Below the pieces are notes generated by a model, which did not search any database, was not told the origin of the DNA, and was given only the letters and a program-made list of their open reading frames with translations. Below, in pieces: positions 24,801 through 32,025 of a DNA stretch of 46,150 nt. Position 1 is the first letter of the stretch, and every line of letters starts with the position of its first letter. The position numbers and the translations under genes were made by a program. The DNA is from Escherichia phage vB_EcoD_SU57, in the sequence record MT511058.1, one strand, 5' to 3'.

Positions 24801-25244
24801 AAATACAACGGACAGACTTATTCATCCGGCATGAGTATGGAGCTTGTTGGCACTGGTGGAAATGTTCGCAGTCAGTTCATATTTGACGCAAACAGGTTCG
24901 CAATCAGTAACGGAATTGGTTCTGGTTCCGGTCAGTGGCAACTCCCCTTTGTTGTCGAGAACGGAAACGTAATCATCCAAAGCGCAGTAATCGGCGACGG
25001 ATCAATTACTAACGCGAAGATTGGTAATATAATTTCATCAAATGATTATGTGGCGGGCTCTCAGGGATGGGCGATACTGAAAAGTGGTGCGTCAGAGTTC
25101 AATAACACAACTGTAAGGGGCAATCTTTACGCTAACAATGGTAACTTTGCTTTTAACGGAACCAATAACACGGTTCAGATTAACAATAACGGAATAACTG
25201 TAAACTTACCGAACGGAGGGAGAGTTGTAGTTGGAGTGTGGTAA
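21858..25244 (+). CDS. tail tip / host specificity protein (lambda gpJ-like)
   Basis: 1128 aa after gpI-like gene; start at ATG 21858 after GAGG RBS. Confidence 0.8.
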   Translation: MAEEIKIYGAKGGSQKQHQPVEQEDNLISLNKVKVLLAVADGEVDPNFSMKDLYLADVPVQNQDGSYNYDGVRAEFRAGTQYQDYIAGLDGANSEIQASREITNDTPYIIAVNNTQLSAIRVKLFWPRLVKQESNGDLNGTTCEYAIDLSVNGGAYQEYTRGVANGKTTTGYDRSIRVNLPAEFDSALVRIRKITPDSTSSTLVNGMQITTYQEVIDAKFRYPLTALVYVEFSSDLFPNGIPTISIKKRWKLIQVPTNYDPETRTYSGTWNGLFKMAWSNNPAWVLYDLVTNRRYGLDQRELGVEIDKWGLYEAAQFCDQMVPDGKGGLEPRYLCDMVVQNKVEAYTLIRDICSIFRGLTFYDGEKIGIVVDKPRNPSYIFTNDNVVNGLFSRTFASDKSLYTTANVQFDDVENNYQQDVEPVFELEATRRFGFNPVDLTAIGCTRRSEANRRGRWLLKTNLRSETISFTTGLEGMIPMIGEVIAVNDAAWSSNYQLNLSGRIESAQGLQVFTPFKVDAAPGDRILLNKPDGSPEARTIASVSEDGRTINLNTAFSFVAQTDTVFAIDKDNLALQQYVVTGIQKADSDGSDSFQYTITAVEYDPNKYDEIDYGVNIVDRPTSIVEPDRLSPPENLTVSSYSKVVQGLSVETMVIGWDKAPYAKTYNVQWRKENGNWINVPRTASTEVDIEGIYAGIYDVRVRSVSDTENVSAWSDIVTVSLTGKIGRPSAPTVVTASTDEVFGIRVKWGFPDGSGDTAYTELQQVPDNGDGTYNPDNASLLTLLPYPAYEYWHTPIQPGKVIWYRARLIDRIGNTSDWSDFARGMSTDDANIINEYIKVDIEGSEGFKYLEQNAIQKNQDIQNQAESILENALANDTDVRRMTKENGKRKAEYVQAVNLIADETQARVEALTQLKAQIDDEVVSSITEVQTALATETEARTTADTQLSARLGENEAALNQKLDAFSNATSTGVQYGISLGLKYNGQTYSSGMSMELVGTGGNVRSQFIFDANRFAISNGIGSGSGQWQLPFVVENGNVIIQSAVIGDGSITNAKIGNIISSNDYVAGSQGWAILKSGASEFNNTTVRGNLYANNGNFAFNGTNNTVQINNNGITVNLPNGGRVVVGVW

Positions 25245-25245
25245 T

Positions 25246-25275
25246 AAATAAAGCCCCTTAATTGGGGCTTTTCTT
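25246..25275. terminator. bidirectional terminator (AGCCCC TTAATT GGGGCT flanked by A-run and T-run)
   Basis: hairpin between convergent gpJ-like and reverse-strand genes. Confidence 0.6.
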
Positions 25276-26238
25276 TTAGTAGAAGTTTGGGATAAATGGA
25301 AGTGCCATTGATATGTTCGTGTCGAAAGGGAACTGAGCGCCAGTCTGGGTTGAATAGTTGCCTATTACAGAACCAGGAGCAGCCCTAACTGAGCCTCCAT
25401 ACATGCAAACCCCCTTGTATCGTAAGTTGTTATACCCTCCTGTAACTCTAGTCACAGCGCCGCATCTAAGCAGCGGGAAGAATCCACCATTTATTGACTG
25501 GTATCCATTATTGATCTGAATGAATCCACCAAGAACAAATGGTCGCCTAACGCTCGAAAAAACAATCTGACCAGAGCTGTTTGACATTGTAAGTCCGGGT
25601 CCAGCTAGTGGTGGTTCATTCCTGAATATCACCAACTGAACGTAAGTACTTGCCGCAACATCATCTGTACCTCCGTAGGTTATATCCCTACACCATATTG
25701 TTGATCCATCTGATTCAAGTGATACGTTTGGATTATCCCACTTGCCGAATGGTATTCCGCTAACTGGTAGCGATGCTGCACCGTTAACCTGTATGCCCCC
25801 AACCCAGGCCGCAGACATTAGCCGCGAGTTGCTTGATATAGCAAGGAAATCAGTTGAGTTCTCAACAAGTATTCCAGGACTTGATGAGGATGAAGCCGGT
25901 AGTATCTCAAAGCAATTACCTGCAAAGTCAATTATTCGACCATTAGCACCATTGAAGTTACTGAGCGTTATCCTACCAGTGCCGTCATTTACCTTTTGAA
26001 ACCCGTTCATGTAATAAACTTCGGGTATAACATCGTAAGCGTCAACGTGGACTGCTTTCGTTGGTAGGCAGAAAGCCGTAGAGCCAGGAGACATTGTCAA
26101 TCCAAAATCCCACGAACTTGCTGGTGTTGAAAGTCCATTGGTATTTATTGATCCAGTCACAGCGGGGGCCCTTAATCCTGCCGTGATTTCCATCGCTGGC
26201 CTTCCGTCATTCAGGTCTATTAGAATACCCTGCGGCAT
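25276..26238 (-). CDS. putative receptor-binding protein (320 aa, Gly/Ser/Asn-rich)
   Basis: reverse-strand gene directly downstream of gpJ-like gene, translationally coupled to lipoprotein gene (TAATG overlap); start at ATG 26238. Confidence 0.4.
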   Translation of the reverse strand: MPQGILIDLNDGRPAMEITAGLRAPAVTGSINTNGLSTPASSWDFGLTMSPGSTAFCLPTKAVHVDAYDVIPEVYYMNGFQKVNDGTGRITLSNFNGANGRIIDFAGNCFEILPASSSSSPGILVENSTDFLAISSNSRLMSAAWVGGIQVNGAASLPVSGIPFGKWDNPNVSLESDGSTIWCRDITYGGTDDVAASTYVQLVIFRNEPPLAGPGLTMSNSSGQIVFSSVRRPFVLGGFIQINNGYQSINGGFFPLLRCGAVTRVTGGYNNLRYKGVCMYGGSVRAAPGSVIGNYSTQTGAQFPFDTNISMALPFIPNFY

Positions 26239-26483
26239 TATTTCCACTCCTTACTTCCGTGATCAGCTACTGACCCACCGTAACCGCCACCGACCTTGCT
26301 TTCAATTCCAGCGTAGCGAATATCAACCTCACCCGCCGGAACAACTACACCGCCTTTCCACTTAGACACGCACACGCCGTTTGCTTGCGTTGCACACCAA
26401 CCATCCGGGCGAGGACCTGAAGAACAGCCCACAATCATGATTGCTGCTGCTGCGATGATTGCTGATTTGATTAATTTATTCAT
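26238..26483 (-). CDS. small lipoprotein, putative superinfection-exclusion protein (Cor/Llp-like role)
   Basis: signal peptide plus lipobox IVGC, two Cys in the mature part, paired with putative RBP gene. Confidence 0.5.
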
Positions 26484-26523
26484 TTTGTATTCCTTAGTAA
26501 TTTCGTTTCGTTTCGATGGAGTA

Positions 26524-26569
26524 ATAATACAACCGTCAGTGAGGAATGTCTTTAGCTATTCGTGCTATT
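26524..26569 (-). promoter_or_regulatory. box (reverse orientation, AATAGCACGAATAGCTAAAG) with TATTAT hexamer at 23 nt
   Basis: upstream of the lipoprotein gene. Confidence 0.45.
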
Positions 26570-26670
26570 GTATACACGTAACCGATGTAACTCGATGTAT
26601 GCAATCTCATCCGCGGAAAATGATATACGCGCTGTTACGCAAATTTACGCATTGGTTACACTATAATATC

Positions 26671-26727
26671 TATATATATCAATCCTTTACTCTTATTATT
26701 ATTATTATATATATTACTATGTATATC
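26671..26727. repeat. AT-rich repeat block copy 2 (matches 125-180)
   Basis: direct sequence comparison. Confidence 0.6.
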
Positions 26728-27030
26728 ATGTAACTACTTATATAGAGTGTTCCGGTTATAATTTTAATATCATGTGGATTTATACAGTATTGCGCGGCAG
26801 CTATACCAATGCACCCTCAGCAATAAATGATATACACGATATACACACTAGTTACATTGAGCTATAGCTGGTCTGGGGTGCCAGAAAACGTAACTAGTGG
26901 CAATGCCTACACGGAATTACAAGGATTCACGCGTAAACTTGAATCAACGATTGGCGAAACCAATTGGACTGGCTACACTGCCGAATATATAGTTAACTCA
27001 TCGAAAGCAATCAACCAGAGAGATACAGAA

Positions 27031-29153: not shown

Positions 29154-29591
29154 ATGCACGTAATTACTGGTCAGATTCGACGCGCTCCATTCACTAAAGA
29201 AGGTCAGAATGCTAATGGTACCTGGAAAATGTTTGCGGTTGATTTGAGTGAGCGATACAAAGATAAAGATGGTCAGACTCAGTATAGTAACTATCGCGCA
29301 GTCTTCTTCGCGAAAGAGTCAATGTTAGATTGGTATAATGAGGCATTTCAAGAAGGTAAAGTTGTTAGCGTTAGCGCAGAAAGCTTGTCTGTTGATGTTA
29401 GAGATAAAGATGGAAAGACTTACGTAACGGTTAACATGAACAACCCTCGACTTGAGTTTAGTCAGCGTGGTGACAATGTAGGTCAGCAACAGAATCAACA
29501 GAAGCCACAACAACAGCAACAACAGCAACAACAACAACAACAGCAACAACCGAAGCAACAACAGAACTTTGAGGATGACATCCCGTTCTGA
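29154..29591 (+). CDS. ssb: single-stranded DNA-binding protein with poly-Gln linker
   Basis: OB-fold-like N-terminus, Gln-rich linker, acidic C-terminal tail EDDIPF. Confidence 0.85.
   Translation: MHVITGQIRRAPFTKEGQNANGTWKMFAVDLSERYKDKDGQTQYSNYRAVFFAKESMLDWYNEAFQEGKVVSVSAESLSVDVRDKDGKTYVTVNMNNPRLEFSQRGDNVGQQQNQQKPQQQQQQQQQQQQQQPKQQQNFEDDIPF
29484..29565 (+). repeat. CAA/CAG simple-sequence tract encoding poly-Q in SSB
   Basis: 14 consecutive Gln codons plus flanking Gln-rich codons. Confidence 0.8.
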
Positions 29592-29624: not shown

Positions 29625-31958
29625 TTAACCTATTTTAGTGTAAGTCCATTGGTATGTTGCAGTGCCCTGGGCAGTTATCCCGACAGTTCTTCCACTTACA
29701 TCCATTGAAGTGAAGGCGCCAGTTTTTGTAATTGTTATTGATGATGACGTACCATCAAAAAGAACATCAGCAATTACACTATAGTTAGGCCCTGCACCAG
29801 TAACCCAGGTCGAAACCTTGTATAAACCTGCGTTGTTTGGCAACTCAAAAAGACCAGCTGAAACATTAGCCTGAACAGCCATAGCACCCTTTCCGGTGTA
29901 TACGCCGTCAGTTTTAAGTCCTAATGATGAATATGTTTGCTTATAACCGCCAACAATTATTCCACCCATTGGTTCAGTAAACCAGTTCACATTACCCTGG
30001 CTAACAACCGATACCGCAGGAGCACCACCCTTAGCTGACTGGAACCTGCCGCTTAAAATGTCAATTCTAGATGCTGAGTCCTGGGCGTAGATAGTTACAG
30101 GGTATCCACCAGTTCCAGTGTAAACCAAGCCGTCATTTCCAATGTCATCTTCTGAAGAGTCAATAATGACATGAGAAGTTCCAGATGCCTTGATGTACGA
30201 AACAACTCCACCAGAACCGCCTCCTGTTGTTCTAACTTCGTTCTTCCATGATGTTAGACCTGAAATTCTGCCGTTTGAGTTATTAAACCTAATTAGGCAA
30301 CAGTCTTGCGAACCGTTGGTGTTAATGATGTTACCCTCAACATCCATGCCTAAAATGTTTACGCTATGACTGTTAATGAAGTCAATCCCAGCCCCGCCGT
30401 AAGAGCCTGATGTTGATGATATATCACTTGCATCCATTGCACAGTTAATCATCGTAACGCTCATTACCGAACCAAACTCATAAGGTGAAACGCAACCTGA
30501 TGCATAACAAGTCTCAAGCAATATCGTAGTTCCGGTCGCCTTGATGAATCCAGTTTTGCAATTCCTGGCCCAAACATTCTGCAACTTTGTCTGGTATGTT
30601 CCAGTGGTGTCAGTGTAGCAACCCCATGCGCCATGTACCGTGCAATCCTTGATGCATGAATTTTCTAGCCCTGTAGATGATCCAACATTAGAAACGAAGT
30701 TAAATGCTATCTTTTGATCATTACCTGATGCTAGGGTAGGCGTGTCTCCTGGATTATAAAAAATGTAAAGACCTTCAATAAATATTTGATACATTCTTAT
30801 GTTTTGTGCATCACCCTGAACCAGTGCAAAAAGGTTAATGTTCCCATCAACTGAGATGAATGTTTGCGCCCTGTTTATTTGGCTTGTCCCCTCACCAATA
30901 ATTCTCGTGCTGTTGCCAATCCTTACAGTCCTGTTAATAAACATAAATCCTTTTGGTATGTATACCGTTTTGCCAGTATTAACCGCCGCCTGAAGCGCAA
31001 CTGCGTCAAGTGACTCGTTAAGGTTTGATGCAAACGGATAAACAAACCGTGCAGCCTCAATTGTCGAGAATTTAGATGATAGCGGAACTAAAGTGCCATT
31101 GTTTGTAGCACCAAAATCCATGACGTTAACAAAGTCACCAAGTTTTGATTCCACACTTCTAACTACTGATGATATATTATTCAGCTTGAAGTTAATCATT
31201 GATGAGCCGTTATCATTCTCAAGATTTTTTAGAACCCTTCCGCTGGAAAGGAGCCTCCAGCCAGTATCATCATCTATACCGCCGGTTCCTTCTGGAGTTG
31301 ATCCTTGCGGGACAACCTTAGGGAATGCTCCAGACCACACATAAACAGAAGAGTTCTCAATGTCTATGATTTGCTGAGAATCACCCTGAAGAGTAACGCC
31401 ACCTTGAAAGCTACCAACTAAAGCTCCTGAAACTGATGCTGCTGCACTCTGAGCAGTGCTTGCAGAGTTGCTTGCAGACAATGCGGAACTAGAAGCGGAA
31501 TCCTTGTCACTCGCAACCTGGGCGGCATCATTTGAAACCTGCGCACCAATTGAAATTACTTCACCATACTGCGTGTTAACCTGCGAAACCTTTGTGCTAA
31601 AGTCATTTGCATCAAAGTTTTTGAAAGCATCAACAGCATCTGAAACCTCAGTTTCACGTGACTGATAGTAACGAAGAGTTTCCGCAACATCCTGAGCTAG
31701 CCCCTGAACGGTAATTCCATCATGCGCAAGGATGGCGTAACCAGTTCCAGCAGGAACAGTTTCGGAGTTAGGGTTGTAAACATTAATCTGCGTATCGCTG
31801 ATAATTTCTGAGATGGTGTAAATCTGTACTGGTTCAGTTTTAAATACAATGGTTGCACCTACACGAATCAGTGTAAGAGGTGCTTTCCATGTTGTCCCGA
31901 CGCCAGTCACCTCACCACTTGCTGCTAGAGAAGCTGTTCCTGAGTCATAAATTGCCAT
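29625..31958 (-). CDS. lateral tail fiber / tailspike-like protein (777 aa)
   Basis: N-terminal fiber-anchor-like region and Ser/Ala-rich linker, long beta-rich C-terminal domain; start at ATG 31958 after GGAG. Confidence 0.6.
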   Translation of the reverse strand: MAIYDSGTASLAASGEVTGVGTTWKAPLTLIRVGATIVFKTEPVQIYTISEIISDTQINVYNPNSETVPAGTGYAILAHDGITVQGLAQDVAETLRYYQSRETEVSDAVDAFKNFDANDFSTKVSQVNTQYGEVISIGAQVSNDAAQVASDKDSASSSALSASNSASTAQSAAASVSGALVGSFQGGVTLQGDSQQIIDIENSSVYVWSGAFPKVVPQGSTPEGTGGIDDDTGWRLLSSGRVLKNLENDNGSSMINFKLNNISSVVRSVESKLGDFVNVMDFGATNNGTLVPLSSKFSTIEAARFVYPFASNLNESLDAVALQAAVNTGKTVYIPKGFMFINRTVRIGNSTRIIGEGTSQINRAQTFISVDGNINLFALVQGDAQNIRMYQIFIEGLYIFYNPGDTPTLASGNDQKIAFNFVSNVGSSTGLENSCIKDCTVHGAWGCYTDTTGTYQTKLQNVWARNCKTGFIKATGTTILLETCYASGCVSPYEFGSVMSVTMINCAMDASDISSTSGSYGGAGIDFINSHSVNILGMDVEGNIINTNGSQDCCLIRFNNSNGRISGLTSWKNEVRTTGGGSGGVVSYIKASGTSHVIIDSSEDDIGNDGLVYTGTGGYPVTIYAQDSASRIDILSGRFQSAKGGAPAVSVVSQGNVNWFTEPMGGIIVGGYKQTYSSLGLKTDGVYTGKGAMAVQANVSAGLFELPNNAGLYKVSTWVTGAGPNYSVIADVLFDGTSSSITITKTGAFTSMDVSGRTVGITAQGTATYQWTYTKIG

Positions 31959-31981
31959 TGTGTAGAGTCTCCATTTGTAAA

Positions 31982-32025
31982 ATAGCACGAATTGCTAAAG
32001 TGGATTGTAGCATCTTTGAGTCATA
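31982..32025 (+). promoter_or_regulatory. perfect consensus box ATAGCACGAATTGCTAAAG on + strand, pointing away from adjacent reverse-strand tail fiber gene; weak hexamer GTCATA at 22 nt
   Basis: only copy oriented against its neighbouring gene. Confidence 0.4.

Follow-up and report, generated by a model that had tools for sequence, protein, structure and literature searches.

What is the function of two small genes on the reverse strand that lie directly behind the tail-tip gene of a siphovirus? The question arises from Escherichia phage vB_EcoD_SU57 (sequence record MT511058.1), from which a stretch of 46,150 nt was analyzed at its full length (from here: the window). The window is an essentially complete genome of an Rtp-like phage of the family Drexlerviridae. 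It encodes a single tRNA-Arg; its tail operon is T1/lambda-like, and exonuclease VIII, Erf and SSB make up its recombination module. Its first 25 kb share ~86% DNA identity with a set of E. coli siphoviruses.

A previous sequence-only reading of the window had proposed that the longer of the two genes encodes a divergent receptor-binding protein (RBP) and the shorter one a lipoprotein serving as its cognate superinfection-exclusion factor. Here we followed up this proposal by profile and structure searches, by structure prediction and by comparison with related phages. The pair is very probably a host-recognition module of the LptD type, consisting of an RBP and an exclusion lipoprotein, as found in small Rtp-like siphoviruses. 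Such a module has already been published for close relatives, along with its receptor and both binding modes (Maffei 2021; Black 2025; Dunbar 2025). Hence, the module in the window brings no new biology, and its value lies mainly in confident annotation.

Gene anatomy and protein families of the pair

The two genes run antisense to the tail operon and follow directly after the gpJ-like gene, as had been stated before. They are convergent with the latter, and the RBP gene ends 31 nt from the gpJ stop codon. The TAA stop codon of the lipoprotein gene and the ATG of the RBP gene overlap in the sequence TAATG at 26236-26240, which bears out the overlap described in the sequence-only reading. The order of gpJ, convergent RBP gene and lipoprotein gene is the same in the phages Rtp, OzMSK, vB_Ec-G8 (G8) and Oekolampad, and the overlap by 1 nt is also annotated in Rtp, OzMSK and G8. 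The coordinates of the individual features are given in Table 1.

Table 1. Positions of genes and sequence elements at the RBP/lipoprotein locus, numbered along the window
Feature	Position	Strand	Basis
gpJ-like tail-tip protein gene, 1141 aa	21819..25244	+	PHROG 31 'central tail fiber J'; Pfam FNIII-A_GpJ, Phage-tail_3, Phage_Tail_Tip
Hairpin resembling a bidirectional intrinsic terminator, between the convergent gpJ and RBP genes	25250..25271	both	8 pairs, 5 of them G-C; T-runs on both strands
Gene of putative LptD-type RBP, DUF6453, 320 aa (end coordinate includes the stop codon)	25276..26238	-	Pfam PF20051, PDB 9rpt_C, AlphaFold2 model
Shine-Dalgarno sequence AAGGAG of the RBP gene, within the 3'-terminal part of the lipoprotein gene	26247..26252	-	sequence reading; 8 nt before ATG
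Gene of putative superinfection-exclusion lipoprotein, Rtp45 family, 81 aa	26238..26483	-	Pfam PF24052, PDB 9rps_D, identities
Shine-Dalgarno sequence AAGGA of the lipoprotein gene	26491..26495	-	sequence reading; 7 nt before ATG

In the mechanical open reading frame call the RBP gene started with a GTG at 26247, yielding a protein of 323 aa. The start at the ATG at 26238, yielding 320 aa, is also the one annotated in Rtp, OzMSK and G8, none of which uses the in-frame GTG three codons upstream. A scan of positions 25000-27000 for the sigma-70 consensus gave 5 sites versus 5.6 expected from shuffled sequences, thus no promoter above chance. Within the gpJ-like protein, the Phage_Tail_Tip domain extends over aa 971-1109.

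The 320-aa protein had been considered to be without recognisable motifs. This was wrong, as it matches the Pfam family DUF6453 (PF20051) in full length with an E-value of 2.4e-138 (460.8 bits compared to a cut-off of 25), residues 4-297 covering the profile positions 1-291 of 291. A PDB sequence search yielded one match, chain C of the entries 9RPT, 9RPW and 9RQI, the 'Tail fiber protein' of phage Oekolampad with LptDE of Shigella flexneri (from here: RBPOeko). The alignment to 9rpt_C reaches from end to end, with query residues 2-320 on chain residues 2-321 (E 4.2e-67). The protein is 96.6% identical to OzMSK_038, 94.4% to its G8 homologue, 43.2% to RBPOeko and 40.0% to Rtp44, and homologues were found by tblastn in 422 phage records. 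The previous proposal was therefore right in assigning the protein to an RBP family, with the OzMSK and Oekolampad RBPs among its relatives, and not in calling it divergent, because its family is large and annotated and the protein is a typical member of it rather than an orphan. The enrichment in Gly, Ser and Asn noted earlier is present but mild (G 12.2%, S 10.3% and N 7.5%).

The earlier reading had also called for a structure prediction of this protein. For AlphaFold2, the window protein was aligned with 54 homologues from a protein search, and the resulting model was all-beta with a pLDDT of 87.2 and a pTM of 0.87. In a Foldseek search of this model against the PDB, 9rpt_C was the sole significant match (<1e-3), with an E-value of 2.6e-21, a probability of 1.00 and TM-scores of 0.89 and 0.71 when normalised to target and query length, respectively; the runner-up had an E-value of 0.066. 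Thus, the model matches the double beta-sandwich fold of RBPOeko.

For the 81-aa protein, the signal peptide, the lipobox IVGC and the two mature cysteines listed in the sequence-only reading were all found. The signal peptide consists of an n-region with two Lys and a hydrophobic core. The lipobox I-V-G-C provides Cys20, and the mature part contains exactly two further cysteines, Cys30 and Cys38. The residue at position +2 is Ser (C20-S-S), hence the Asp inner-membrane retention signal is lacking and, by the +2 rule, the lipoprotein would be sorted to the outer membrane. The protein matches the Pfam family PF24052 (Phage_lipoprotein, 'Phage lipoprotein family') with an E-value of 2.6e-38 (130.3 bits, cut-off 27), residues 1-80 spanning the profile positions 1-80 of 80. 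In the PDB sequence search it matched 9rps_D, which is Rtp45 in the LptDE-LptM complex (E 1.2e-34). Pairwise identities were 79% (78.9%) to Rtp45, 91.4% to OzMSK_039, 90.1% to the vB_Ec-G8 homologue (G8_003) and 38.4% to the superinfection-exclusion (SE) protein of Oekolampad, and tblastn recovered homologues from 365 phage records. In the pairwise alignment with Rtp45, Cys20, Cys30 and Cys38 line up in both proteins, and residues 30-35 read CATQAN in the window protein and CATQAS in Rtp45. In the published structure of Rtp45, Cys30 and Cys38 form a disulfide, and the segment 30-35 joins a beta-sheet with LptD residues 318-323 (PMC12685063).

Judging from E-values of 2.4e-138 and 2.6e-38 and from the 422 and 365 phage records with homologues, both genes are real and not chance open reading frames.

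Receptor and exclusion mechanism predicted from close homologues

While gene anatomy, family membership, fold, synteny and the conservation of cysteines and contact strand were determined here, the receptor, the binding modes and the mechanism of exclusion would be transferred from published work on close homologues. In small siphoviruses, 'bona fide RBP loci' were reported immediately behind gpJ, accompanied by cognate genes for superinfection exclusion (Maffei 2021, PMC8594841). Allelic variants of these loci track the terminal receptor, and the Rtp/AugustePiccard-type variant goes with LptD, an assignment that was based on spontaneous resistant mutants with lptD deletions (PMC8594841). That the RBP is mounted on gpJ is a model from this literature (PMC8594841).

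Phage OzMSK is unable to infect strains with the lptD deletions Δ(Y658-Y678) or Δ(L394-V396), and an engineered deletion of lptD loop 11 protects BL21(DE3) (Black 2025, PMC13035648). In the same study OzMSK_038 was modelled as an LptD-binding double beta-sandwich, and three groupings of RBP tip loops were described, which possibly bind in somewhat different ways (PMC13035648). Moreover, a preprint on 255 phages found the RBP family (>30% identity) specifically associated with LptD, and identified the GpJ C-terminus as a specificity-associated feature (bioRxiv 10.64898/2026.04.02.716166).

In the structural work (Dunbar 2025, PMC12685063), binding of RBPOeko to LptDE was demonstrated in vitro and by cryo-EM; the protein was solved deep in the extracellular mouth of LptDE in the open-gate conformation, with contacts mainly to the extracellular loops EL3-5 and EL11. 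The single LptD substitutions Y671N and D352Y led to the loss of both binding and infection. The solved Rtp45 occupies the periplasmic face of LptDE, with LptE and LptM on either side (PDB 9RPS). Its hairpin climbs up the barrel lumen and shifts EL4 by as much as 20 Å, a displacement not compatible with binding of the RBP. The exclusion function of Rtp45 was inferred from the structure of this complex, and in the sections of that paper that were consulted, no assay of Rtp45 exclusion in vivo was found. AlphaFold3 models of Rtp45 and of the Rtp45-LptDE complex were reported there to be wrong.

LptD was among the candidate receptors named in the sequence-only reading, and homology to the RBPs of OzMSK and Oekolampad supports this choice. 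The assignment rests on the 96.6%-identical RBP of OzMSK, for which LptD dependence was established at the level of the phage rather than of the isolated protein; with RBPOeko, for which a structure was solved, the identity amounts to only 43%. The proposed role of the lipoprotein as cognate exclusion factor gains support from its 79% identity to Rtp45 as solved in 9RPS.

Based on these homologies, the following mechanism can be proposed. The 320-aa protein would be the terminal receptor-binding protein, a soluble all-beta double-sandwich, whose conserved N-terminal base may attach without a covalent bond to the C-terminal tip of the gpJ-like protein, as in the literature model. Its distal loops would enter the mouth of LptD, the LPS translocon, from the extracellular side and probably contact the loops EL3-5 and EL11 in the open-gate conformation. 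This binding is predicted to make adsorption irreversible and to trigger DNA ejection. In the infected cell the 81-aa lipoprotein would be made, exported and lipidated at Cys20, and its Ser at +2 would place it in the outer membrane, on the inner leaflet. By homology to Rtp45, it would bind LptDE from the periplasm between LptE and LptM, pushing a beta-hairpin up the LptD lumen and displacing EL4 by up to ~20 Å. The RBPs of the same and of related phages would then be unable to bind LptD, and the progeny would thereby be spared adsorption to infected cells and debris.

Among the alternatives, an RBP allele of the same fold could recognise an outer-membrane protein other than LptD, or one in addition to it, and the lipoprotein would block that receptor. 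The identity of only 40-43% to Rtp44 and RBPOeko is compatible with this, as are the horizontal swapping and fast evolution of RBP loci (PMC8594841) and the dual-receptor phenotypes in the group, where Bas01 requires NupG and LptD, via a GpJ domain (bioRxiv 10.64898/2026.04.02.716166). However, the protein shares 96.6% of its residues with the RBP of OzMSK, a phage unable to infect two different lptD loop mutants (PMC13035648), and every protein of the family with >30% identity was associated with LptD (bioRxiv 10.64898/2026.04.02.716166). The lipoprotein, too, points to LptD, being 79% identical to a protein solved on LptDE. We therefore consider a different receptor improbable.

Some annotations suggest a function away from adsorption altogether. 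PHROG 1265, which the RBP matches with an E-value of 7.3e-129, stands in the category 'moron, auxiliary metabolic gene and host takeover; membrane protein', and many records, also in RefSeq, label the RBP homologue 'membrane protein'. Accordingly, the pair might be a moron or membrane-protein cassette, or the lipoprotein a component of the lysis machinery such as an o-spanin, as phage outer-membrane lipoproteins can be. Yet the RBP has no hydrophobic segment (19-aa Kyte-Doolittle means reach 0.97 at most), it was modelled as a soluble all-beta protein matching a solved RBP, and Rtp45, the homologue of the lipoprotein, was solved bound to LptDE. Moreover, genes for an i-spanin, a holin or an endolysin are absent among the open reading frames adjoining the pair, which is located at the tail-tip locus. 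We rejected the annotation as membrane protein or moron because of the missing hydrophobic segment and the soluble beta-fold model; a cassette unrelated to adsorption, or a lysis component, is very unlikely.

It is hardly credible that the lipoprotein is a FhuA blocker of the Cor type (T1/phi80) or the Llp type (T5), a reading that draws on the name 'Cor superinfection exclusion protein' for the 90%-identical G8_003 in the vB_Ec-G8 record and on the same logic of a small outer-membrane lipoprotein encoded beside an RBP, whereas the Pfam scan of the lipoprotein gave PF24052 only, the PDB sequence search (E up to 1) gave Rtp45 as the sole meaningful match and no Llp, and OzMSK infected FhuA-disrupted production strains (PMC13035648). 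Membership of the lipoprotein in the Cor or Llp families was rejected, as neither Pfam nor the PDB sequence search gave a sequence match to them. The label 'Cor' on the G8 homologue is an analogy only. The original Rtp genome paper, by Wietzorrek et al. in 2006, is said to have proposed a Cor-like exclusion role for Rtp45 rather than demonstrated it.

Mosaic structure at the tail tip and relatives in podoviruses

The DNA of the window and of Rtp was compared in sliding windows. In the gpJ body the identity is ~85-92%. It drops to ~45% from ~24985 to ~26230, a segment comprising the last ~85 gpJ codons and the whole RBP gene, then rises again inside the lipoprotein gene and is back at 92-96% in the upstream intergenic region 26482-26780. 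The protein sequences of gpJ and Rtp43 agree in 92-100% of the residues as far as residue ~1037, and in 88% and 71% in the last two alignment windows. From this drop in DNA and protein identity compared to Rtp, the exchanged cassette is the gpJ tip plus the RBP, with the last ~85 gpJ codons (from ~24985) co-varying with the RBP allele. The position of the breakpoint fits an RBP that would be docked on the gpJ C-terminus. It also fits the horizontal exchange of RBP loci described by Maffei et al. (PMC8594841) and agrees with the GpJ C-terminus as a specificity-associated feature (bioRxiv 10.64898/2026.04.02.716166). Over the RBP/lipoprotein locus, the window DNA shares 94% identity with Veterinaerplatzvirus T145P1 and with phage 2725-N35, and 90% with MSK/OzMSK.

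Weak but significant tblastn matches of both proteins were also obtained in podoviruses of the Gordonclarkvirinae with genomes of ~76 kb. In phage EP335, gp019 falls into DUF6453 (Pfam 2.1e-23, 83.5 bits compared to a cut-off of 25) and matches 9rpt_C at 1.5e-10. Its gene lies directly after that of gp018 and before a transglycosylase gene. The 336-aa protein gp018 has a C-terminal half that belongs to Phage_Tail_Tip (PF09327, 1e-24), the domain that also ends gpJ, and from its gene order it appears to be a homologue of the SU10 tail needle. The lipoprotein family is represented in EP335 by gp105 (PF24052, 3.5e-36), with a lipobox and the motifs RPDGWC...GVCV...KEW. The gene of gp105 is located ~44 kb from that of gp019, among small, presumably early genes; hence, the two families are unlinked in this phage. 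Altogether, the DUF6453 gene was present in 99 records of the Gordonclarkvirinae type, including SU10 and phiEco32. In the SU10 structure paper gp19 is not mentioned, and a literature search for a link between Kuravirus or Gordonclarkvirinae and LptD found none in the papers covered. The matches suggest that kuravirus-like podophages may use LptD as terminal receptor via a protein at the tip of the needle.

Conservation is much stronger in the exclusion lipoprotein than in the RBP, with 79% versus 40% identity to the respective Rtp proteins. Therefore, one type of lipoprotein might exclude a broad range of LptD-binding phages. It is a tentative idea, which we hold to be possible but rather doubtful, that the module reaches beyond the small siphoviruses, with broad exclusion by the lipoprotein and with LptD as an unrecognised terminal receptor of kuravirus-like phages. 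If this were true, the lipoprotein in the window would be a candidate for a cross-family exclusion factor.

With regard to annotation, genes named 'hypothetical' or 'membrane protein' can be renamed as putative LptD-binding RBP and LptD-directed superinfection-exclusion lipoprotein, and LptD is the predicted terminal receptor of the phage. This may be of practical use in receptor prediction, in the design of phage cocktails and in the construction of phage-resistant production strains. The deletion of lptD loop 11 would be expected to protect against the phage of the window, as it does against OzMSK.

Comparison with known systems

The closest of the described systems is that of OzMSK/MSK (PMC13035648). 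Its putative LptD-binding RBP OzMSK_038 and the protein OzMSK_039 are 96.6% and 91.4% identical to the proteins of the window, and the position after gpJ and the TAATG coupling are the same. The dependence of OzMSK on LptD loop 11 and strand beta-10 (PMC13035648) would apply to the phage of the window by homology. The two RBPs differ by eleven substitutions. In OzMSK, a DNA methylase gene is inserted just upstream of the lipoprotein gene, whereas there is only an intergenic region in the window, and OzMSK_039 was annotated as hypothetical only.

Rtp (rtp44 and rtp45; PDB 9RPS) shares the gene order, the 1-nt overlap, a gpJ body that is 92-100% identical in protein sequence, and a 79%-identical lipoprotein with its lipobox, Cys30-Cys38 and the strand 30-35. 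In contrast, the RBP allele is only 40% identical, and the DNA identity falls from ~90% to ~45% between ~24985 and 26230. In addition, the lipoprotein of the window has a 5-residue insertion near its C-terminus, where Rtp45 reads KGSSG.

Oekolampad (Bas18; PDB 9RPT/9RPW/9RQI) has an RBP of the same family and fold, with 43% identity over the full length, in a locus of the same architecture. However, it belongs to a different genus, Dhillonvirus, its SE lipoprotein is 38% identical, and its two genes are separated by a gap of 2 nt instead of overlapping. The tip-loop sequences of the RBPs differ as well, and the detailed contacts to LptD may therefore differ.

The sequence-only reading had likened the pair to the modules of T5-like and T1-like phages. 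The likeness holds as an analogy, not as homology. In T5, with pb5 (oad) and Llp acting on FhuA, and in T1/phi80 with Cor, a tail-tip RBP is likewise accompanied by an outer-membrane lipoprotein from the adjoining gene, which inactivates the same receptor from the periplasm. No homology to pb5, Llp or Cor was detected for either protein in the Pfam scan or in the PDB sequence searches (E up to 1). The receptor of the T5, T1 and phi80 systems is a TonB-dependent transporter, whereas LptDE is predicted for the module of the window. The modes of inactivation differ as well: in the structural work, reverse (long-range) allostery on FhuA is described for Llp, in contrast to the steric displacement of EL4 through the barrel lumen by Rtp45 (PMC12685063).

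Exchange of the tail tip relative to Rtp

The receptor-binding protein (RBP) gene is separated from its counterpart in the related phage Rtp by a fall in DNA identity, from approximately 90% to approximately 45%, over a stretch that spans the final ~85 codons of the tail-tip protein gene gpJ and the entire RBP gene. Identity rises again within the lipoprotein gene, whose product is 79% identical to that of Rtp. On sequence comparison, the exchanged cassette therefore consists of the gpJ tip plus the RBP.

PHROG 1265 and many RefSeq records label this RBP family 'membrane protein', in the category moron / host takeover. This label is misleading, because no hydrophobic segment was found in the window RBP and its fold is that of a solved tail-tip RBP.

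Genes and intergenic DNA near the module

The lipoprotein gene and the rtp46-like ORF point away from each other, and the AT-rich intergenic region that separates them is 92–96% identical to Rtp, above the value of the flanking coding DNA. It probably holds divergent promoters; a promoter consensus scan covering it gave a signal no higher than chance. At the matching spot, a DNA methylase gene is inserted in OzMSK and an 'anti-repressor' gene in vB_Ec-G8.

Coordinates of the features discussed (L005 and L006, stretches of Escherichia phage EP335, NC_070979, are counted within each stretch)
Feature	Location	Strand	Remark
Low-identity stretch vs Rtp	window 24985-26230		gpJ end and RBP gene
RBP gene	window 25276-26238	-	DUF6453
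Intergenic region	window 26484-26826		343 bp
SSB-like ORF	window 29154-29591	+	position of rtp49
Lateral tail fibre or tailspike gene	window 29625-31988	-	787 aa
EP335 module-family loci	L005 2941-4984; L006 2926-3207	+	gp018/gp019; gp105

The SSB-like ORF encodes a long C-terminal glutamine tract (QQQNQQKPQQQQQQQQQQQQQQPKQQQ) followed by an acidic tail. The lateral tail fibre or tailspike gene is distinct from the LptD module. Its product is likely the primary glycan-binding fibre, judged from a Tail_spike_N domain, an N-terminal anchor common to many tail-fibre PHROGs and a weak pectate-lyase-like match.

Distribution of the module families

LptD modules of the E. coli type were also seen in records named Pseudomonas phage (PsgS01F, PP134917) and Campylobacter phage (A131, A120). 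PsgS01F has 44679 bp, equal to Escherichia phage UALMA_PCEc3, and the match profiles of both are near-identical; the host labels of the PsgS01F, A131 and A120 records look doubtful. In the protein search with the window RBP, DUF6453 homologues of 31–48% identity (rows P0025-P0058 and P0110-P0117) lie on a Pseudomonas marginalis plasmid and on contigs of megabase size from Citrobacter, Salmonella, Enterobacter and Pseudescherichia, presumably within prophages. Hence, the RBP family extends beyond virulent coliphages.

Both module families are present, as unlinked genes, in the kuravirus-like podoviruses of the Gordonclarkvirinae, and the DUF6453 gene occurs in 99 of their records, including SU10 and phiEco32. 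In EP335, gp018 (336 aa) ends C-terminally in a gpJ-type Phage_Tail_Tip domain and is directly followed by gp019, a DUF6453 protein; based on gene order, gp018 is probably a tail-needle homologue. The PF24052 lipoprotein gp105 is encoded ~44 kb away, among small genes that are apparently early genes. Our literature search found no paper tying kuravirus-like podoviruses to LptD. These observations suggest LptD as the terminal receptor of the Gordonclarkvirinae podoviruses.
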